Counted from the stretch's first letter, positions 4,112 to 63,427 are shown. The stretch is 64,000 nucleotides of DNA from Planctomycetaceae bacterium (GCA_013360495.1 JABWBM010000011.1:42-64041); one strand, 5' to 3'. The notes: a model not told the origin generated them from the sequence alone. Numbers and translations: made by a program.

Positions 4112-4197
4112 GACGTAGCGTCACGCCTATGGCGTGACGTCTTCGCCCCATTCTCAATATCGCTTACAAGACGTCACGGCATAGCCGTGACGCTACA
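4112..4197. repeat. MITE-like palindromic element, family C (TGTAGCGTCACG hairpin pair)
   Basis: gacgtagcgtcacgcctatggcgtgacgtcttc ... aagacgtcacggcatagccgtgacgctaca. The two hairpins lie in inverted orientation and the family recurs 8 times in the window. Confidence 0.8.
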
Positions 4198-7493: not shown

Positions 7494-7565
7494 CGCTTGA
7501 AAGCGCAGGAATCGCCAAGGTAAGCAGGAAAAATGAGAAAAATGTGGGGAAGAGCCACGTCGCGC

Positions 7566-7643
7566 GTCATGCCGACGAAAGTCGGCATCCAGCTACAATC
7601 AGATTTCTCGTCGCATCTGGATCCCCGCTTTCGCGGGGATGAC
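7566..7643. repeat. MITE-like element family A (forward hairpin, 24-nt spacer, reverse hairpin)
   Basis: gtcatgccgacgaaagtcggcatccag ... ctggatccccgctttcgcggggatgac. Confidence 0.85.
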
Positions 7644-7662
7644 GCCGCAGCAAGCTGCGGCG

Positions 7663-9039
7663 TCACTTACCGATGCAAAACTTGGCGAAGATGTGGTCGA
7701 GGACATCCGCCGAGGCTCCGTGGCCAAAGGCTTCGCGTATGGCGGAGAGCGCCGATCGGGCGAGGTCACTGACCACTTCGATGGGGGCGCCGCGATCCAA
7801 TTCCGAAACGGCTTCCTCCAGACGTGAGGCTGCCTCGGTAATCAGGGCTCCTTGGCGGGCGGATACAGCAGTAGTCTCCGGCGCGAGGGAGCGTTTGACG
7901 AGGGAAGTGATTCGGGACTTGAGCTCGGCGATGCCGTCGTTGGTGAGCGCGCTGACGGAGAGGGACGGATAGTCGCAGAATGGCTCTGGTAGGGGACTGG
8001 AGTTTGCGCACAGGTCGCGCTTGGTACGCACGATCAACGTACGATCATTTGTAAGATATGAGGCATTCCGGTGAAGGGGAGAATCAAAATGTAAGCAATC
8101 AAAGACTGGATTCCCGCCTTCGCGGGAATGACATGCCTTACTATCGATCACGAGTAACACAACATCGGCGCGATCCTGTTGTTCGTGGGTGGATTCAAGG
8201 GCGTGATTCTCGATCATATCGGCCGCCTGCTTCATGCCGGCGGTGTCCACGAGTTCCACGGCAATGCCGCCAAGATCGGCGGTTTCCAGCACGGCGTCGC
8301 GCGTGGTTCCGGCCTCATCGCTCACGATGGCACGCTCGCGCCCAAGGAGCGCATTGAAGAGCGTTGACTTTCCCGCGTTGGCCGGGCCGATGAGAACGAC
8401 CGACGGTTTCGCGTGGCCGGCGTGGCGCGGCGCTTCCGTGAACCGCCGCAGATGGTCAAGGGCCGCGCGCGCCATGTCCTTGAATCGGTCAAGCAATGCC
8501 TGTTCCGCCGCCTCCTCGTCAAAGTCAAAGCTCAGCTCGAACTGCGCGCACAGTGACTCAAGTTCGCTGACCAAGCGCTGGCCTTCTCGGGAGAGCGCCC
8601 CGTCCAGTACCGCGGAAAACCTGCGGGCATCTTCCTTGCCGCTGCTCGACACCAGTGCCATCACCGCTTCGGCTTGCGAGAGGTCGAGCACTCCGTTGAG
8701 ATAAGCGCGTTTACTGAACTCGCCCGGATCGGCCATGCGCGCACCGGCCTTGCACAGCTCACGCAGCACGGCGTCCACCAGCAATGGCGAGCCCGACAGG
8801 TGAATCTCCACGCAGTCTTCGCCGGTGGCGGAGTGCGGCGCTGGGGATATCCAGAGTTGTGCAGGACAAGCGCCTGCGGAAAGTTTGAGCCGTGTGCGAA
8901 CGATAGAACGCTTGGATTCAATAGATGCATCGGGGCAGAGCTTTCGCACGATCCCGATTGCCTCGTCGCCGCTCACGCGAATGGCCGCGCGGACTGCGGG
9001 AACAAGCGGCGTGGCTGGCGCGAAGATGGTTTCGGTCAC
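7663..9039 (-). CDS. mnmE: tRNA modification GTPase MnmE
   Basis: G1 motif GPANAGKSTLFNAL, G2/G3 DEAGTTRD..DTAG, and the C-terminal CIGK tetrapeptide. The gene overlaps yidC by 4 bp as in the classical arrangement. It carries an in-frame repeat insertion (next feature). Confidence 0.9.
   Translation of the reverse strand: MTETIFAPATPLVPAVRAAIRVSGDEAIGIVRKLCPDASIESKRSIVRTRLKLSAGACPAQLWISPAPHSATGEDCVEIHLSGSPLLVDAVLRELCKAGARMADPGEFSKRAYLNGVLDLSQAEAVMALVSSSGKEDARRFSAVLDGALSREGQRLVSELESLCAQFELSFDFDEEAAEQALLDRFKDMARAALDHLRRFTEAPRHAGHAKPSVVLIGPANAGKSTLFNALLGRERAIVSDEAGTTRDAVLETADLGGIAVELVDTAGMKQAADMIENHALESTHEQQDRADVVLLVIDSKACHSREGGNPVFDCLHFDSPLHRNASYLTNDRTLIVRTKRDLCANSSPLPEPFCDYPSLSVSALTNDGIAELKSRITSLVKRSLAPETTAVSARQGALITEAASRLEEAVSELDRGAPIEVVSDLARSALSAIREAFGHGASADVLDHIFAKFCIGK
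8062..8132. repeat. MITE family A copy embedded in-frame inside mnmE
   Basis: ggcattccggtgaaggggagaatc (degenerate unit) plus a 20-nt spacer plus ctggattcccgccttcgcgggaatgac. It is translated as CHSREGGNPVFDCLHFDSPLHRNASYLTND between the G3 and G4 (TKRD) motifs. Confidence 0.8.
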
Positions 9040-13806: not shown

Positions 13807-13925
13807 GTAGCGTCACGGCTATGCCGTGACGTCTTGCTCTATTCGAAAGCCGCCACAGCAAGCCGTGGTGTCACGGAAAATGTCTATCAAACGTTTGTCC
13901 GTCACGCCATAGGCGTGACGCTACA
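13807..13925. repeat. MITE-like element family C
   Basis: gtagcgtcacggctatgccgtgacgtcttg ... gtcacgccataggcgtgacgctaca. The terminal gctaca overlaps the trmB stop codon. Confidence 0.8.
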
Positions 13926-18808: not shown

Positions 18809-19351
18809 ATGGCCCATGACGATGCCAGCCTCGTAAAGCGCACCCTCGGGGGCGACACAGCGGCATACCGCGAGTTGGTGGAGCGTTACCAGCGCGCGGT
18901 GTTCTCCTGCGCGTATCAACTGCTCGGCTCCCGCCATGACGCCGAGGAGGCGGCCCAGGAAGCCTTTGTGCAGGCTTTCGAAAAGCTCGACCGGCTGCGC
19001 GAGCCGCGCTATTTCTTCTCGTGGGTATGGCGCATTACGAGCACGGTGGCGTTGAAGTGGCGGCTCAAGCAGCGCCGCTCAGAGCTTGGCCTCGAAGCGG
19101 ATATGTTCGCGCGCGAACGTGAACAAGCGCCCGTGGAGCGGGAAGAGCAAAGACTCACTCTCTTGCAAGCTTTGGCGCAGTTGCCCGAAGAGCAACGCGA
19201 AGCCATCACGTTGCGCTTTTGGGAGGAGATGGATTACGCGCAAATGGGCAAGCTGCTCGGTATCAGCCATGACGCGCTCTACCAGCGTGTGTCGCGGGGA
19301 TTGAAGCAGCTTCGGGAACTCCTTGGGCAGGATTTCGTTGTACGAGAGTGA
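18809..19351 (+). CDS. RNA polymerase ECF-type sigma factor
   Basis: AEEAAQEAFVQAFEKLDRL, WVWRITSTVALKWRLKQ and region-4 HTH (EMDYAQMGKLLGISHDALYQRVSRGLKQLRE). Confidence 0.8.
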   Translation: MAHDDASLVKRTLGGDTAAYRELVERYQRAVFSCAYQLLGSRHDAEEAAQEAFVQAFEKLDRLREPRYFFSWVWRITSTVALKWRLKQRRSELGLEADMFAREREQAPVEREEQRLTLLQALAQLPEEQREAITLRFWEEMDYAQMGKLLGISHDALYQRVSRGLKQLRELLGQDFVVRE

Positions 19352-19589
19352 AGATTCACCACAGAGGCACGGAGAACACGGAGGAATACATTTCACGCAA
19401 AGAGAAAAAGATGGGAGAAAAGTGCGATCACGAAAGCGCGAAAGCTCGAAACATGATGGGGATTTTCAAATCTTGAGTTCGTGATTTTTCCATTTCGTGT
19501 TTTCGTGATCTCTTCTCCCTTCCGACTTCGCGCCTTTGCGTGCCAATCCTATTCTTTCTCTGCGTTCTCCGTGCCTCTGTGGTGAATCT
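19352..19589. repeat. MITE-like element family B (~240 bp nested palindrome)
   Basis: Termini attcaccacagaggcacggagaacac ... gttctccgtgcctctgtggtgaat. It fills the whole sigma to downstream-gene intergenic gap. Confidence 0.75.
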
Positions 19590-19598
19590 TGCAAAACC

Positions 19599-22645: not shown

Positions 22646-22753
22646 TCTGGATTCCGGCTTTTACCGGAATGACACGTTGCATTGTTCTGTATTTCTCTGC
22701 GTCCTTTGCGCCTTTGCGGTGAAAAAACTGGATTCCCGCCTGCGCGGGAATGA
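22646..22753. repeat. composite repeat: two MITE-A hairpin units in direct orientation flanking a MITE-B arm fragment
   Basis: ctggattccggcttttaccggaatgac ... tttctctgcgtcctttgcgcctttgcggtgaaaaaa ... ctggattcccgcctgcgcgggaatgac. Confidence 0.75.
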
Positions 22754-22755
22754 CA

Positions 22756-24801
22756 TCAATACGCCAGCACCTTCTTCACCGCGTCGAAGACGATCTTTTC
22801 GTTTGGCTGCATGGCTGCTTCGAGGGTCTTGTTGAACGGGACGGGGATATATTTCTGGCCAACGCGTTCCACGGGCGCGTCGAGGTACTCGAAGCACTCG
22901 TGCATGATCTGCGCCACGATCTCACCGCCGAAGCCGGAGAACACCTTGTCTTCATGAACGACGAGCGCGCGGCTGGTCTTGCAGGCGGATTTGACGATGG
23001 CGCCGGTGTCGAGTGGGTTGAGGCTGCGCACGTCCAAAACCTCGACGGAAATGTTTTCCTTCTCCGCCATTTCGGCCGCCTTCATGGACCACATCACGCC
23101 GCTGCCGTAGGTGATGATGGAGATGTCGTTGCCTTCCTTGCGCAGGCGCGCCTTGCCGAAGGGAACGACGAAGTCTTCCGCGACTTTGCAGCGCGTGAAG
23201 GGATGGTTGTACATCGCCTTCGGTTCGAGATAGAGAATCGCGCCCTGAGAACGCATGGCCGTACGCATCAGTCCGGCTGCGTCGTCGGCGTAGCACGGCG
23301 TCACCACGCGCAGGCCGGGGATGCTGGTGAAAATCGCTTCGAGGTTCTGGCTATGGTAGAGGCCGCCGCCAATGTTACCGCCTGAAGCGAGGCGCAGGAT
23401 CACGTTGGGCGAGAATTGGCCATAGGTGCGCCAGTATTCGTGGGAAAGTTCGATGATCTGGTCCATAGCGGGCCAGACGTAATCGGCGAATTCCGCGGCT
23501 TCCACGACGACGCGAATCTTCTGGTCGAAGCGCGAGAAACCATTGGCGGTGCCGACGATATAGTTCTCGGCGATCGGGGCGTTGAACACGCGCTTGTTGC
23601 CGAACTCGTGCTGCATACCGTCGGAGACCTTGAAGATGCCTTCCTTCTCGCCGCTCGCCATGTCCTGCCCCCACATGAAGGTGTCGGGGTTGCGGCGGAA
23701 CTCGGTTTTGAGCGCCTGATTGATGCCTTGACGCAGCGTGCAGACCTCGCCGGTATCAGAGGCTGGAATGCCCTCCGGGTTTTCTGTGCATGGATAGGCC
23801 GGCGGCAGCAGGTGATCCTCGACGGTGGAGATGTCGGCGATGGGCGCCGCGCTGCCGTATTCGACTGCGGCGTTGAATTCCTTCTCAGCGTCGGCTTCGA
23901 TTTCCTTGAGTTGAGATTCGGTGGCCAGCTTTTCTTTGAGAAGGAAATTGCGGAAGATGGGGAGCGGGTCGCGCTTCTTGGCTTCCTCAAGCTCCTTTTC
24001 GCTGCGGTAGAGTGTGTGGTTATCGGAGTTCGAATGCGGGCCGATGCGCGCGCACATGGCGTAGACGATGGCGCAGCCTTCGCCTGCGCTGACGAAATCC
24101 ACGGCGGCCTGCATGGAACGGAAGCAGGCGAAGACGTCGCGCCCGTCGCAAATCTCGATGTGCAGGTTGCCGATGCCGCGGTAGTTCTCGGCGAGGATTT
24201 CGTTGGCGCTTTGTTCGCGCTTGGGCACGCCGATGCCGTAGCCATTGTCCTGCATGACGAAGACGACGGGGAGTTTCTCGCGCGAGCTGCCATTAATCGC
24301 CTCGAAGACGTAGCCCTCGGAACTTGAGGACTCGCCAAAGCTCGCGTAGGCGATGGCGTCGCTCTTGTAATACTTGGCGGCGCGGGCAACTCCGGCGGCG
24401 TGCTGCGCGTGGTTGGATACACAGCTCGATACGTTTTGGATATTGATCGCGGGTTTAGCGAAGTGGTTCGACATGTGGCGGCCCTTGCCGGCCACGTCTT
24501 CCTCGCGCGACAATCCGTTCAGGATGATTTCCTTCGCCGTGAGGCCCGCAGCCAACGACGTGACCAGGTCGCGGTAATATGGGAAGAGATAGTCCTTGCC
24601 TTGGCGGAAGGTGCAGCCGAGCGCCACCTGAATGGCGTCGTGGCCCGCGCATGGGGCGTGGTAGGACCAGCCCATGTTTTTGCGCAGGAAGTTCGGCGCC
24701 TCCTCGTCAAGCAGGCGGCCGAGGTACATCAGGCGGTAGACCTGCTCATGGCCGGGGTAACGTTCGCTGGGGACTTCAAGCGTCGCGGTTTTCTGTTTCA
24801 T
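22756..24801 (-). CDS. 2-oxoacid dehydrogenase E1 component, fused alpha (TPP-binding) and beta (transketolase-like) subunits
   Basis: TPP motif GESSSSEGYVFEAINGS...VFVMQDNGYGI in the N-terminal half and E1-beta pyrimidine/transketolase C-terminal domains in the second half. ATG at 24801, because the longer ORF runs into a repeat. Confidence 0.8.
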   Translation of the reverse strand: MKQKTATLEVPSERYPGHEQVYRLMYLGRLLDEEAPNFLRKNMGWSYHAPCAGHDAIQVALGCTFRQGKDYLFPYYRDLVTSLAAGLTAKEIILNGLSREEDVAGKGRHMSNHFAKPAINIQNVSSCVSNHAQHAAGVARAAKYYKSDAIAYASFGESSSSEGYVFEAINGSSREKLPVVFVMQDNGYGIGVPKREQSANEILAENYRGIGNLHIEICDGRDVFACFRSMQAAVDFVSAGEGCAIVYAMCARIGPHSNSDNHTLYRSEKELEEAKKRDPLPIFRNFLLKEKLATESQLKEIEADAEKEFNAAVEYGSAAPIADISTVEDHLLPPAYPCTENPEGIPASDTGEVCTLRQGINQALKTEFRRNPDTFMWGQDMASGEKEGIFKVSDGMQHEFGNKRVFNAPIAENYIVGTANGFSRFDQKIRVVVEAAEFADYVWPAMDQIIELSHEYWRTYGQFSPNVILRLASGGNIGGGLYHSQNLEAIFTSIPGLRVVTPCYADDAAGLMRTAMRSQGAILYLEPKAMYNHPFTRCKVAEDFVVPFGKARLRKEGNDISIITYGSGVMWSMKAAEMAEKENISVEVLDVRSLNPLDTGAIVKSACKTSRALVVHEDKVFSGFGGEIVAQIMHECFEYLDAPVERVGQKYIPVPFNKTLEAAMQPNEKIVFDAVKKVLAY

Positions 24802-29432: not shown

Positions 29433-29501
29433 GTAGCGTCACGGCCATGCCGTGACGTCTTCCGGCCGATTAAGACGTCACGCTATAAGCGTGACGCTAC
29501 A
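29433..29501. repeat. MITE-like element family C
   Basis: gtagcgtcacggccatgccgtgacgtcttc ... aagacgtcacgctataagcgtgacgctaca. Confidence 0.8.
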
Positions 29502-35808: not shown

Positions 35809-35841
35809 ACCCGCCTCATTGCGTGCAAAGTCCTCCCGAGC

Positions 35842-35921
35842 CGTCACACCGGCGGAAGCCGGTGTCCAGGAGCTATCAGAAAACATTCGTCGTGTCTGGA
35901 TTCCGGCTTACGCCGGAATGA
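35842..35921. repeat. MITE-like element family A (paired hairpins)
   Basis: gtcacaccggcggaagccggtgtccag ... ctggattccggcttacgccggaatgac. Confidence 0.85.
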
Positions 35922-35968
35922 CGGCCGTATCGCATTTTCGAGCGAAGAGTTGGTATAAGCCGCTCCCG

Positions 35969-37500: not shown

Positions 37501-37735
37501 AAGATTGAACCACGGAGATCACGGAGACCACGGAGAGAGAAAGATTTCTCACCACGGGGGAAATCGGGGAAATCGGGGAAAGAAGTTCTCACGCAAAGGC
37601 GCGAAGCCGCAAAGAATTCGTGATTTTCCGTATGAATTCAATTCAATTATTCTTGCTTTCCTTTGCGCCTTGGCGGCTTTGCGTGAAAATCTTTGTTCTT
37701 CCCCGCGAATCCCGGTGTTCCCCGTGGTGAAAAAC
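37501..37735. repeat. MITE-like element family B
   Basis: Arms tctcaccacgggggaaatcggggaaatcgggg...cacgcaaaggcgcgaag // ctttgcgcc...cttccccgcgaatcccggtgttccccgtggtgaaaaa around an AT-rich core. Confidence 0.75.
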
Positions 37736-37789
37736 GTCTTTCTCCCCGGCGTTTGGGCGTTTCGGTCGTATCATCAACGTGGAGAATCG

Positions 37790-39016
37790 ATGCGACGATT
37801 GATCTTAGCCGGCATGTCCTGCCTTGCTGTCCTGTGCGTGGTGCGCGCGCAGGAAGGGCCATCGTCCGCTCCGGACACAAAAACGCCTGCCGCGCCTGCA
37901 CCAAAAAGCGAAGAGCCGCCCGCCGCGCCATCGCCACGCGCCGGAGAGCCGAAGCTCGACACACTTACGTTGCGCGAAACGCGCCCATGTGTGTTCTCCC
38001 CGCGCATCCCGGCGGAGTATCTTCGCGACCATCAAGCCAAGCAACTCGCCACGGCTCGTCTCTCCCTCGACCTTGACAAGGCAGGCGTGCTGGAGCTCGC
38101 CTACGGCGAAGAACGCACGCAGGCCCCTGTGATCGCGGCTTTTGTCGACGAAAAGGAGAGCGAGTCGAAGCTCGACACGGAACTCTATCGCTCGCGCGCT
38201 GACCGTTCGATGTTGCTCGTGTTCACCGTCAAGTCCGCGCCAAAAAATTTCGGCGCGTATACATTGCTGATCGAACATACGCAGGTGAACGAAGCCGGCG
38301 AGCAGGCGGTCAAAAGCATGCAATTTCACAACCTCGAAACCTTCACGCGGCAACGAGTCACGATTCCCGGCATGCTCCCCGGCGTGAACCGCCTTTGCCT
38401 CAAGGTGCGTTTCACGGATGACAACAAGGTCACCACCACCAGTGACGGCATAAGCCATTTCGTGACGGTGAATGAGGTTCCCGCCCTTGCGCTGAGCACA
38501 GAAACAAAGGCCGAAACGAACGTCAAGAAAGCGCAAGGGGTTGGAGTCTATGAGGCGTTGTTGACCACCACGCATACGTTCATACTCTCGCCCTCAGTTG
38601 ATCCCGCGTCGGTACGTCTGCGGGTGCTGAGACGCGGTTCGCGCGGCTTCGACCTAGACGGCGTCGATACGGATGTGCGCGATTTAATCGGCCAGCCTGT
38701 CTACCAAAAGAGCGCGCGGCTCTTGGCCGAAGTGAAACTCGCCAACGAGGCGGCGCCGGGTGTGCGCGTCGAGAATATGGGACAGCGCCGCTATCGAGTT
38801 ACGGTGGAGCATGCGTTGAGCGCTACGGAGAGTTTGATGCCGCTTACCGACGAGTGGGAATATCTCTTTGAGTTGCGGCACAAGGATCACAACGATGCCA
38901 TCGACAGTTTTTCCCATTCGGTTGGCGCGCTTCTCGACACCGATGTTGCCTATGTGACGTATAAGAATCGCGCCGGAGCCGATGTGGTGCGCGTGCCGTT
39001 CAAGCCTGCGGAATGA
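37790..39016 (+). CDS. secreted hypothetical protein
   Basis: Signal peptide MRRLILAGMSCLAVLCVVRAQEG. The upstream part of the longer ORF is repeat-derived. Confidence 0.5.
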   Translation: MRRLILAGMSCLAVLCVVRAQEGPSSAPDTKTPAAPAPKSEEPPAAPSPRAGEPKLDTLTLRETRPCVFSPRIPAEYLRDHQAKQLATARLSLDLDKAGVLELAYGEERTQAPVIAAFVDEKESESKLDTELYRSRADRSMLLVFTVKSAPKNFGAYTLLIEHTQVNEAGEQAVKSMQFHNLETFTRQRVTIPGMLPGVNRLCLKVRFTDDNKVTTTSDGISHFVTVNEVPALALSTETKAETNVKKAQGVGVYEALLTTTHTFILSPSVDPASVRLRVLRRGSRGFDLDGVDTDVRDLIGQPVYQKSARLLAEVKLANEAAPGVRVENMGQRRYRVTVEHALSATESLMPLTDEWEYLFELRHKDHNDAIDSFSHSVGALLDTDVAYVTYKNRAGADVVRVPFKPAE

Positions 39017-39035: not shown

Positions 39036-39119
39036 GTAGCGCCACGCTTCAGCGTGGCGTCTTCGACTGTTCGGAAATCTTCGGTTTCTTCAAGACGCCA
39101 TGCTAAAGCATGGCGCTAC
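39036..39119. repeat. MITE family C variant (GCCACGC stems)
   Basis: gtagcgccacgcttcagcgtggcgtcttc ... aagacgccatgctaaagcatggcgctac. Confidence 0.6.
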
Positions 39120-41958: not shown

Positions 41959-41990
41959 ACCAACCCTAAATGGGAAAGGTGATTTCGACC

Positions 41991-42070
41991 GTCATTCCGG
42001 CGAAAGCCGGAATCCAGATATAACGGGCGATTCTCGGTAGCCACTGGATGCCGACTTTCGTCGGCATGAC
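41991..42070. repeat. MITE-like element family A (paired hairpins)
   Basis: gtcattccggcgaaagccggaatccag ... ctggatgccgactttcgtcggcatgac. Confidence 0.85.
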
Positions 42071-42103
42071 GGACGCAATCCAACAACCAATTAAGACTTC
42101 GTT

Positions 42104-42862: not shown

Positions 42863-42871
42863 CTAACGAAC

Positions 42872-42898
42872 GTCATTCCCGCGAAGACGGGAATCCAT
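42872..42898. repeat. MITE family A single hairpin unit
   Basis: gtcattcccgcgaagacgggaatccat, in the 49-bp gap between the ATPase and permease genes. Confidence 0.7.
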
Positions 42899-42911
42899 CT
42901 TTCATGCCTTG

Positions 42912-49506: not shown

Positions 49507-49558
49507 CCCGGATTCCCGCGAGTTATGCAAACCTTGGGTGCAAATTCGATGTTCAGCC

Positions 49559-49626
49559 GTCATGCCCGCGTAGGCGGGCATCCAGTCTTCTCTTTGTATC
49601 TGGATTCCGGCTTGCGCCGGAATGAC
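49559..49626. repeat. MITE-like element family A (paired hairpins, 14-nt spacer)
   Basis: gtcatgcccgcgtaggcgggcatccag ... ctggattccggcttgcgccggaatgac. Confidence 0.85.
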
Positions 49627-49705
49627 GATACCAATCATCCATGGTATCAAACGAGGCAGACGCGCGGACGTTCGATGAAAGATGCTTTGAGATCCCGCCG
49701 GTGGG

Positions 49706-50950: not shown

Positions 50951-50974
50951 GCGACTATCCTAACTCTCCCCGTC

Positions 50975-51061
50975 GTCATGCCGGCGTAAGCCGGCATCCA
51001 GTCTTTTTTCTCTACGTCTCTTTCTTTTCAACGTCTGAATTCCGGCTTGCGCCGGAATGAC
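50975..51061. repeat. MITE-like element family A (paired hairpins)
   Basis: gtcatgccggcgtaagccggcatccag ... ctgaattccggcttgcgccggaatgac. Confidence 0.85.
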
Positions 51062-51108
51062 GCTCGTATCCCTTTAATACGCTCCAACGCTGTATTCGTT
51101 TGGAAAAT

Positions 51109-52227: not shown

Positions 52228-52353
52228 GTAGCGTCACGGCTACGCCGTGACGTCTTGTCCGAAAATCAAGCATTGGGTCGAAGACGTCACGCCATAGGCG
52301 TGACGCTACATTCTTATTCGCACTGCATTCCGCGGGGGCGCGTGACGCTACGA
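52228..52353. repeat. MITE-like element family C (pair plus an extra half-unit)
   Basis: tgtagcgtcacggctacgccgtgacgtcttg ... gaagacgtcacgccataggcgtgacgctaca ... gcgcgtgacgctacg. Confidence 0.8.
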
Positions 52354-54438: not shown

Positions 54439-54473
54439 AGCTTATCCTCGAAAAAAGATGCGTTTTTGCGTGC

Positions 54474-54553
54474 GTCATGCCGACGAAAGTCGGCATCCAG
54501 GACCCATGAAAAGACAAAAAGTTAAGATGGATTCCGGCTTTCGCCGGAATGAC
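54474..54553. repeat. MITE-like element family A (paired hairpins)
   Basis: gtcatgccgacgaaagtcggcatccag ... atggattccggctttcgccggaatgac. Confidence 0.85.
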
Positions 54554-54597
54554 GTTATAAACGCCAACCATTCATGGGGGCAGTAAGAGCCCTCGTA

Positions 54598-58281: not shown

Positions 58282-58331
58282 ATGATCTTCCTTCAGATAG
58301 GTCTGTTATTCGGGAAGAATACAACCACGCC

Positions 58332-58410
58332 GTCATTCCGGCGAAAGCCGGAATCCAGTCTTATGGACATTTTTTGGTCGCTTCTGGATACCGGCTTTCG
58401 CCGGTATGAC
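58332..58410. repeat. MITE-like element family A (paired hairpins)
   Basis: gtcattccggcgaaagccggaatccag ... ctggataccggctttcgccggtatgac. Confidence 0.85.
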
Positions 58411-58494
58411 GCCCTGTGGCGCGTGGGGTTCTTGGGAATGCAATACAACATAGGCCTTCGATCTTACGTTTGTCCGACCTTTGGCAAGCGGAAA

Positions 58495-59199
58495 TCAGGC
58501 GCTCAAGCGCAGGAAATTGCGGAGCAGGTCGTGGCCGTGCTCGGTCAGGATCGCCTCGGGGTGGAACTGCACGCCCCAGATCGGGAGCTCGCGGTGTTCG
58601 ATCGCCATCACCACACCGTCGTCGCTTCGTGCAGTGACGCGCAATGATGGCGGCAGCGTGTCCTCCTTCACCGCAAGCGAATGATAGCGGCACACGCGCA
58701 GTGGATTCGGTAGCCCGGCGAGGAGGCCGCTGCCATTGTGGGTGACGAGTGATGTCTTGCCGTGCACAGGTTCGGGAGCGTGGGTGACGCTTGCGCCGAA
58801 GTGTTGCGCGATTGCCTGATGGCCTAAACATACCCCAAGGATCGGCACGTGGCCCGCGAACGCCTTGATCACGTCGAGCGTCTTTCCGGCGCACTCCGGC
58901 GTCCCCGGCCCGGGAGAGATGCAGACGCGTTTTGGTTGCAATTGTTCAGGAAACCGTAGTCTCGAGTAGGTCGTCCTGAGCTTGTCGAAGGGCGGCCGTA
59001 TCGAGAGACGGTCCTTCTCGTGTCCCGTATCTCGATACGCGCCTCCGGCGCTACTCGATATGACGGATTTTGAATGTGGCTCATCCAAAAGATCTACAAC
59101 AAATGCGTCATTGCGCAGCACGGTCACGTCCTCGCCCAGCTCGTGGAAATACTGCACGAGGTTAAACGTGAACGAATCGTAGTTATCGATCAAGAGCAT
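58495..59199 (-). CDS. glutamine amidotransferase (anthranilate/aminodeoxychorismate synthase component II)
   Basis: [18 protein letters not shown]...ISPGPGTPE...[13 protein letters not shown]...HSL...FHPE catalytic triad. It contains a 46-aa in-frame insertion (next feature). Confidence 0.8.
58942..59079. repeat. 138-bp palindromic element inserted in-frame in the amidotransferase gene
   Basis: ccgtatcgagagacgg / cccgtatctcgatacg and ctcgagtagg / ctactcgata inverted pairs. Translated as [46 protein letters not shown] at a position where homologues have ~8 aa. Confidence 0.7.
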
Positions 59200-63318: not shown

Positions 63319-63385
63319 CTTGAGAGTCCGGAGTCCGGCGTGCGGAGTCCGGTGTCGAACCCATAGAAAGCGGGTTCACTTATAT

Positions 63386-63412
63386 GTCATTCCCGCGGAG
63401 GCGGGAATCCAT
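63386..63412. repeat. MITE family A single hairpin unit
   Basis: gtcattcccgcggaggcgggaatccat. Confidence 0.7.
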
Positions 63413-63427
63413 GTTTTCTGGAGATTG

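Follow-up and report, generated by a model that had tools for sequence, protein, structure and literature searches.

A probable REP-like palindromic element carried in frame by a planctomycete pabA/trpG-like amidotransferase gene

Repetitive extragenic palindromic (REP) sequences have been sorted into a GTAG and a CGTC superfamily, found in more than 80 species of eight phyla including the Planctomycetes and Verrucomicrobia, and most of them are head-to-head dimers lying 20-100 bp apart (Di Nocera, De Gregorio, Rocco, BMC Genomics 2013, PMC3733652). REPs situated wholly within open reading frames (ORFs) are most numerous in Opitutus terrae and in Rickettsia conorii, where they correspond to the Rickettsia palindromic elements (RPEs) RPE-4 and RPE-6; intragenic dimers encode 20-30 amino acids, and clusters 43-82 (PMC3733652). 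Besides RPE-4 and RPE-6, the CGTC superfamily also takes in Neisseria dRS3 (PMC3733652). For the GTAG REPs, the proposed mobiliser is the REP-associated tyrosine transposase (RAYT), an HUH/Y1 transposase recognising the GTAG-tagged hairpin in single-stranded DNA (PMC3733652; PMC3479197; PMC8266576). GTAG REPs are described as dispersed in many copies over their genome (PMC3733652), and REPINs as accompanied by a cognate single-copy RAYT gene that is itself flanked by REPs (PMC3116915). Intragenic REP insertion is already known, the Planctomycetes-Verrucomicrobia-Chlamydiae (PVC) superphylum included (PMC3733652), and the case described here adds an example. We analyzed a stretch of 64,000 nucleotides from a Planctomycetaceae bacterium (GCA_013360495.1, JABWBM010000011.1:42-64041), hereafter the window, in which a palindromic segment of 138 nt lies in frame within a gene for a pabA/trpG-like glutamine amidotransferase (GATase). 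We propose, with a probability of about 0.75, that this segment is a non-autonomous palindromic element of the REP or REPIN (REP doublet forming a hairpin) kind, tolerated inside the gene.

The insert in pabA and its architecture

The gene product matches the Pfam GATase family (PF00117) with E=9.6e-56, has the E. coli-type PabA structures 8rp1 and 8rp0 as its closest solved relatives (phmmer against the PDB, E=9e-63), and is identical to protein NUQ33673.1 of the sister assembly at NCBI. When aligned with 119 homologues of 185-239 amino acids, the columns of the 46-codon insert (Table 1) are empty in every one of them. The phmmer alignment also breaks at this site, residues 2-36 and 85-231 being paired with residues 4-38 and 41-187 of 8rp1; since the PDB sequence is split only between positions 38 and 41, the full 46 amino acids are a net insertion. 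Residues C124, H213 and E215 of the GVCLGHQ and QFHPE motifs, which we take to be the catalytic triad of class-I GATases, are present in columns that are invariant across the alignment, and 42 invariant GATase columns are intact in the product. Two of the six reading frames are open across the insert, and the gene reads one of these two.

An AlphaFold2 (AF2) model based on a 120-sequence alignment has a predicted local distance difference test (pLDDT) score above 90 for 160 residues and below 50 for residues 37-81. In Foldseek, the model superimposes on E. coli PabA in the aminodeoxychorismate (ADC) synthase complex (8rp0) with a target-normalised template modelling (TM) score of 0.94-0.95 and a root-mean-square deviation (rmsd) of 1.5 Å. 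The insert follows the C-terminus of helix alpha-2 and directly precedes the L-x-P leading to strand beta-3. It is probably a disordered loop, and the GATase fold that carries it is intact as modelled and compatible with a working enzyme, presumably one with PabA activity. The palindromic element would account for an unusual stretch of 46 residues that automated annotation and structure prediction would otherwise count as protein.

At the DNA level, two copies of a GTAG-tagged stem-loop unit, TCGA-GTAG-[hairpin]-CGTA-TCGA, are joined head to head in the insert, and the flanks of the units form a central hairpin and an outer stem. The two GAGTAG-[hairpin]-GTATCGA units are inverted, one on each strand, with 27 nt between them and GTAG outermost. 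The pattern GAGTAG-N(6-36)-GTATCGA has exactly two matches in the window, both in the insert and on opposite strands, and none in 100 shuffles. Unit 1, with its GTAG at 58966-58969, has a stem of 9 bp and a loop of 11 nt, and unit 2 a stem of 5 bp and a loop of 3 nt, the shape seen in GGCGC-GAA-GCGCC of a related locus (L172). As in GTAG REPs, both are stem-loops with a stem within the range of 5-13 bp and an unpaired GTAG at one end, and, as in REPINs, two such units stand inverted across a short spacer and could form one long hairpin. The arms of the central hairpin (58997-59011 and 59025-59039, 15 nt) are 93% complementary and match the inner stem CGTATCGAGACC...GGTCTCGATACG of the family consensus, while the 19-nt arms of the outer stem are 79% complementary; the terminus of the element reads CGGTGGTCGAGTAG....

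Folded as a single strand, the insert forms the outer stem around three hairpins. The fold of the mRNA strand has an energy of -57.3 kcal/mol, compared with -40.4 +/- 3.8 kcal/mol for shuffles (z = -4.41), the DNA fold has z = -4.48, and none of 200 dinucleotide shuffles folded as well, for RNA and DNA alike.

The insert is fixed in the sampled population. Across the aligned gene region, thirteen contigs from separate runs or assemblies match the window to 100%, 12 of them over the full 900 nt and one over 851 nt, and one further contig shows a single-base difference there. The identical protein is found in Logan contigs of many runs and in two metagenome-assembled genomes (MAGs), GCA_026647195.1 (Planctomycetaceae bacterium) and GCA_023150505.1 (Planctomycetota bacterium), and no paper in the searchable literature mentions the accessions of the assemblies.

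These results agree in most respects with a sequence-only reading of this DNA, made by a model without database searches, which had described a 138-bp palindromic element in frame in pabA/trpG. The two inverted repeats that it quoted are real, the length divisible by three with preserved frame and catalytic triad was confirmed, and the alignment with orthologues and the RNA and DNA folding that it proposed as checks both came out in its favor. Its suggestion of a surface loop is consistent with the modelled position of the insert. The 46-residue length that it gave stands as well, whereas the ~8 residues that it expected in canonical enzymes are in fact 0-2, according to the alignment and the split of the PDB match.

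Relatives of the element in other organisms

Five loci of Sphingomonadales (L164, L168, L181, L186 and L189) carry elements of 118-160 nt with their parts in the same order as in the pabA insert, namely an outer arm with GAGTAGG at its end, followed by a hairpin that contains the 18-mer CCTGAGCTTGTCGAAGGG, CCGTATCGAAGG...CCTTCGATACG, another (third) arm, and then CTACTC.... This 18-mer stands at the apex of unit 1 of the pabA insert and of several alphaproteobacterial and Sphingomonadales units. A covariance model (R1) built from these five loci only recovers the pabA element over model positions 1-134 of 134 with 57.2 bits and an E-value of about 1e-10, the runner-up in the window reaching 20.6 bits (cmsearch); the loci had been retrieved with a 26-nt pattern from the pabA element, and the 57 bits are partly circular. 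Because of this circularity, we take as independent evidence of a family those units that lack the 18-mer. The fetched loci (~1.5 Mb) contain 30 GAGTAG...GTATCGA units, compared with one in shuffled loci, and 18 of the 30 do not have the 18-mer used for retrieval and are hence by-catch, for example GAGTAG-GCGCGAAGCGC-CGTATCGAG in L172 and GAGTAG-CCCCCGCAGGGGG-CGTATCGA in L153. Unit 2 of the pabA insert, also without the 18-mer, is shaped exactly like these by-catch units. Locus L181 is dense in the family, with four units in 6.8 kb.

The segments between the tags, 26 of them distinct, are all hairpins of unrelated sequence with a mean z of -2.6. Across 181 distinct apex segments there are 1039 Watson-Crick pairs and 65 isolated mismatches, and the stems vary in a compensatory manner between copies, as they do in GTAG REPs. 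A metagenome scan with TCGAGTAG-N(5-35)-CGTATCGAGA gave at least 120 loci. Among the matches listed, there are 185 units, with 31 head-to-head dimers versus five tail-to-tail pairs, and the consensus is GGTGGTCGAGTAG-[hairpin]-CGTATCGAGACC-(11-66 nt)-GGTCTCGATACG-[hairpin]-CTACTCGACCACC with lengths of 75-158 nt. The alphaproteobacterial and Sphingomonadales loci combine the GTAG unit with arms CCGTTCGYCCTGAG or CCTCATCCTGAG. No target-site duplication was found in 32 family dimers, the window copy included, and flanking direct repeats were not above controls. Judged by these sequence comparisons, the pabA insert belongs, in diverged but complete form, to a family that is abundant in Sphingomonadales, other Alphaproteobacteria, and metagenomes.

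The family does not appear in the catalogues that we searched. Rfam gave nothing for the element or for nine 18-mer loci, at gathering thresholds or at E<=10, a plasmid collection searched with blastn in distant mode gave no match, and in the searchable literature only chance primers matched the strings of the 18-mer, of the flanks of the unit, or of the peptides encoded.

A separate in-frame copy was seen in an unrelated activated-sludge contig (UOYA01001088, L212), where positions 8298-8359 hold a head-to-head dimer of the pabA-type unit within gcvP, the gene for glycine dehydrogenase. It coincides with a gap of ~15 residues in the PDB homologue 4lgl, and translation of the unit uses the frame that it has in PabA (S-S-S...A-Y-R-D).

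The 18-mer has a wide distribution of its own. It occurs exactly in more than 120 IMG/VR contigs among the matches listed (loci L011-L130), where by a rough estimate about one or two would be expected by chance, and the pattern GTAG-N(0-8)-18-mer-N(0-10)-CCGT was found in 57 loci of at least 10 phyla when one genome per GTDB species was scanned (L136-L192); the host species is absent from these matches. The viral 18-mers are mostly part of palindromes CCGTTCGCCCTGAGCTTGTCGAAGGGC...GCTTCGACAAGCTCAGCACGAACGG, and the usual company of the 18-mer is a left arm CCGTTCGC and its inverted partner. We considered whether the 18-mer could be the loop, conserved in sequence, of a local hairpin whose stem covaries; only 11 of 131 viral instances have five or more extra local pairs, which is near the control level, and this idea was rejected. 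The 18-mer pairs mostly with a distal inverted copy. It resembles the unit flanks without their hairpin (CCTGAG-CTTG-TCGAAGG versus CCTGAG-[TAG hairpin CGTA]-TCGAAGG), and it may represent a form of the unit that has no hairpin ('solo' or empty-site).

The conserved bases of the unit are near-identical in Planctomycetota, Alphaproteobacteria, and high-GC metagenome organisms. Unit flanks and an exact 18-mer shared across phyla fit poorly with REP and REPIN families that are lineage-specific and vertically inherited. A tentative and, in our judgement, rather improbable explanation is that the insert is a copy from an uncatalogued family of four-way-junction palindromes that spans phyla, made of TCGA-GTAG-hairpin-CGTA-TCGA dimers with conserved inner and outer stems. 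The near-identical bases and the exact 18-mer would then result from horizontal spread or from a conserved trans-acting factor, and not from lineage-bound co-inheritance of REPINs and RAYTs. The conservation of the 18-mer and the flanks is the only part of these results with real potential for novelty, and is perhaps of more interest than the pabA case itself.

Origin of the insert and alternative explanations

Based on its build, we hypothesize that the pabA segment arrived as a mobile element of two GTAG-tagged stem-loop units placed head to head, whose single strand would fold as a cloverleaf or four-way junction. The element would have inserted in pabA/trpG where helix alpha-2 ends, before strand beta-3, and its survival there might be due to its 3n length, to the gene frame being one of two open frames, and to the surface-loop site. 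Its arrival would have been by transposition, most likely through a RAYT-type HUH/Y1 transposase recognising the single-stranded hairpin. Mobilisation by a RAYT fits because the family shows no target-site duplication, which is as expected for HUH-type and not for DDE-type mobilisation, and because the host carries other GTAG REPs. The enzyme is presumably still functional, and the insert would be neutral rather than useful.

Several observations weigh against this proposal. The unit has GTA on either side of its hairpin and a TCGA/TCGA closing stem, which goes beyond the textbook REP with an unpaired GTAG at one end. BLASTN of the segment, with which the sequence-only reading had expected to find further copies and define the family, gave no second copy in the window at word size 7, and neither did motif searches or the covariance model; the family was defined from other organisms instead, in part through the circular covariance score. 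A further ~16 kb of host DNA has no pabA-type copy either, leaving one dimer in ~80 kb. Logan contigs cross the pabA element yet stop at the adjacent REP of another family (family B, below), so that no 31-mer is common to the element and other loci. A tblastn search with 10 sequences of RAYTs and terminal inverted repeat-associated tyrosine transposases (TIRYTs), taken from Additional file 5 of PMC3733652, found none in ~1.1 Mb (window, host, genome, and metagenome loci), which is uninformative since one gene per genome is expected. The six-frame concatenated peptide of the element, compared with 5.8 billion proteins, matched only the gene itself. The closest insert-free orthologue is only 54% identical and the databases hold no empty-site allele, so the insertion event is deduced and was not seen. 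The pabA-type family is probably low-copy at most, or diverged, in this host. The sequence-only reading had named as counting against it a segment that was unique in the genome and had no conserved inverted repeats; the element is unique in the available host DNA, but organisms other than the host share its conserved inverted-repeat architecture.

Among the alternatives, the one that best survives, although we consider it unlikely, is that the insert has been domesticated, its mRNA structure regulating translation or decay of pabA or its loop having a role of its own, for example in binding the partner PabB or TrpE. The very stable structure (z = -4.4) would suit such a role, as would the retention of all 18 conserved family flank bases in both units, and Di Nocera et al. 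suggested that many REPs act as RNA elements (PMC3733652). A peptide with no relatives among 5.8 billion proteins and modelled as disordered argues against a function of the loop, and G.T wobbles, which could have marked a functional RNA strand, number 15 against 21 A.C mismatches over the 181 apex stems, showing no sign of RNA-strand-specific selection. The fixation of the insert and its invariance in 13 contigs might also seem to speak for domestication; however, the whole 900-nt gene region is identical, so this invariance reflects a near-clonal population and not a constraint on the insert.

We find it quite unlikely that the segment is a classical miniature inverted-repeat transposable element (MITE), that is, a deletion derivative of an insertion sequence (IS) moved by a DDE transposase through its terminal inverted repeats. 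It is bounded by terminal inverted repeats, imperfect ones of about 19-25 nt, and its size of 115-138 nt lies within the MITE range, but none of the 32 family dimers has a target-site duplication, no related or parent IS was found, and GTAG-tagged hairpin units in dimers of 75-158 nt with variable hairpins follow the REP/REPIN pattern rather than that of a fixed-length IS derivative.

A lineage-specific loop of local origin, produced by duplication or slippage, palindromic by accident, and neither mobile nor repeated, is very improbable. The single family copy in ~80 kb of host sequence and the internal direct repeats (D1) of a 16-mer-like motif are what such an origin might leave behind; the ordered architecture, the 16-18 flank bases per unit that are common to hundreds of units in unrelated organisms, and the lack of any unit in shuffles of the window are not. 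That the insert is an assembly artefact or part of a decaying pseudogene is scarcely credible: one MAG contig breaks within the element, and farther down the gene it shows a mosaic stretch, but the 13 identical contigs, independent and from different runs and including two NCBI assemblies, rule out an artefact, and the frame is open, with the conserved Cys, His, and Glu and the 42 invariant GATase columns intact and the fold modelled with high confidence. Readings as an intein, an intron, or a tRNA-like structure were dropped, the insert being 138 nt long and in frame with no Rfam or Pfam signal.

We therefore keep to the interpretation as a REP/REPIN-like element, and the window contains two further REP families at high density (Table 1). 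Family B is a CGTC REP, CGTC-ATTCCGGC-GAAA-GCCGGAAT-CCA, present as about eight dimers, mostly head-to-head, and single units. One of its copies lies in frame in mnmE, with an intact unit GTCATTCCCGCGAAGGCGGGAATCCAG at 8106-8133 and a degenerate partner at about 8062-8084, and encodes a peptide of about ACHSREGGNPVFDCLHFDSPLHRNASYLTND; the Pfam MMR_HSR1 match of the product ends at residue 301. Family A is a classical GTAG REP, GTAG-CGTCACGSC-TAT-GSCGTGACG-TCTT, with four head-to-head dimers and a variant A'. Its dimers imply a RAYT somewhere in the host genome, and its pattern gave no matches in JGI metagenomes. The claim of the sequence-only reading that a second, unrelated type of palindrome has entered a coding region holds, a GTAG-tagged dimer in pabA standing against a CGTC-type REP in mnmE. 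The genome-wide process that it derived from these two cases would rest on families A and B and on the mnmE insert, not on the pabA type, given the lack of a further copy in ~80 kb.

Repeats also coincide with the ends of assembled sequences. Every Logan contig carrying pabA terminates at the family-B copy at 58331-58358, and REP sites can be flagged as a reason for contigs in these MAGs to break off. Neither public MAG of the species is as contiguous as the window, whose first kilobases and pabA region fall on separate contigs of GCA_026647195.1 (those compared were JAPKHD010000005.1, L313, and JAPKHD010000071.1, L317). In GCA_023150505.1, the start of contig JAKLKV010000284.1 (L134, 1-540) falls within the right arm of the central hairpin of the pabA element. 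The contig is 100% identical except for a patch of ~90 nt in the 3' third of pabA, where identity drops to only ~60%, a sign of chimeric assembly or of recombination involving a different trpG/pabA allele. Of the two long imperfect palindromes in the window, the first lies between ORFs, and the second at the 5' end of a long ORF (37505-39016), probably upstream of its real start codon.

Table 1. Coordinates of the pabA-type element, its host gene, and other palindromic repeats in the window
Feature	Position	Strand	Remarks
pabA/trpG-like glutamine amidotransferase gene, class-I GATase	58495-59199	minus	234 aa; Pfam PF00117
46-codon insert, residues 41-86 (PHSKS...RFPEQ)	58942-59079, exactly 138 nt	minus	alignments; modelled as disordered loop
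Element body	58953-59067	plus	delimited by covariance model from Sphingomonadales copies
Outer stem / terminal inverted repeat, left arm AAACCGTAGTCTCGAGTAG	58951-58969	none	inverted repeat I1
REP-like unit 1: TCTCGA-GTAG-[GGTCGTCCT / loop GAGCTTGTCGA / AGGGCGGCC]-GTA-TCGAGA	58960-59006	plus	regex match 58964-59004; inverted repeat I3
18-mer CCTGAGCTTGTCGAAGGG, apex of unit 1	58975-58992	plus	exact motif recurring across many phyla
Central hairpin: arms CGTATCGAGAGACGG + CCGTATCTCGATACG, 13-nt loop	58997-59039	none	inverted repeat I2
REP-like unit 2: ATATCGA-GTAG-[GCGCC GGA GGCGC]-GTA-TCGAGAT	about 59028-59066	minus	regex match 59032-59056
Outer stem / terminal inverted repeat, right arm CTACTCGATATGACGGATT	59051-59069	none	inverted repeat I1
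mnmE	7663-9039	minus	family-B (CGTC-type) REP in frame in GTPase (G) domain, insert about 8062-8134
Family B dimers	7561-7644, 35841-35927, 41986-42078, 49558-49627, 50974-51070, 54466-54554, 58329-58412
Family B single units	22723-22756, 42864-42905, 63384-63417
Family A dimers	4115-4197, 13807-13924, 29433-29500, 52228-52310; variant 39036-39119, 24923, 60660
Long imperfect palindromes (208-240 nt) of CACGGAGA/TCTCCGTG-type repeats	19351-19590, 37537-37744

Overall, the pabA gene of this planctomycete, which encodes a core biosynthetic enzyme, is a clear addition to the short list of bacterial genes that tolerate an in-frame palindromic repeat, and, together with mnmE, places two REP types in frame in genes within 64 kb of one genome.

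Comparison with known palindromic elements

The RPEs, reportedly described by Ogata et al. in 2000, resemble the pabA insert in being palindromes of ~100-150 nt that lie in frame in housekeeping genes and add a surface peptide without destroying the protein. The pabA insert likewise lies in frame at a site predicted to be surface-exposed, with the gene frame and the conserved Cys, His, and Glu kept. RPEs are multi-copy in their host and many are intragenic, whereas the pabA-type family was seen once in its host. Besides, RPE-4 and RPE-6 are of the CGTC type (PMC3733652) and closer to the mnmE insert, while the pabA element is GTAG-tagged. The pabA insert can be regarded as an analog of the Rickettsia RPEs.

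Bacterial MITEs such as Correia/NEMIS, RUP, and ERIC (PMC10969869) share with the pabA family that they are small, non-coding, bounded by inverted repeats, dispersed, and sometimes intragenic or co-transcribed. Unlike MITEs, the pabA family has no target-site duplication and no IS parent, and it consists of modular hairpin units and is variable in length; of the three marks of a MITE, which are terminal inverted repeats, target-site duplication, and derivation from an IS, only the terminal inverted repeats are present. The bacterial interspersed mosaic elements (BIME) of E. coli and the Rhizobium-specific intergenic mosaic elements (RIME) are mosaic intergenic elements, each defined within single genera and extragenic. 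Like the pabA family, they are combinatorial mosaics of short palindromic modules, a likeness in build.

The closest systems are the GTAG REPs and REPINs (PMC3733652; PMC3116915, Bertels and Rainey 2011; PMC3479197, Messing et al. 2012). The pabA family differs from these systems in having GTAG...CGTA around the hairpin, a TCGA/TCGA stem, and conserved inner (CGTATCGAGACC) and outer (GGTGGTCGAGTAG) dimer stems, in its single dimer in ~80 kb of host DNA, and in that no RAYT was found linked to it in the ~1.1 Mb searched. Its conserved sequence also extends over several phyla, in contrast to descriptions of REPIN-RAYT systems as lineage-specific and inherited vertically. We file the pabA element provisionally as REP-like (GTAG-tagged) and not under any of the 24 published GTAG families. 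Like the GTAG REPs and REPINs, the pabA family has a short GC-rich stem-loop after GTAG and covarying hairpins, occurs mostly as head-to-head pairs 10-70 nt apart that could form a larger hairpin, and lacks a target-site duplication. As with GTAG REPs, there are intragenic copies in frame, and a classical GTAG family, family A, is present in the same host.

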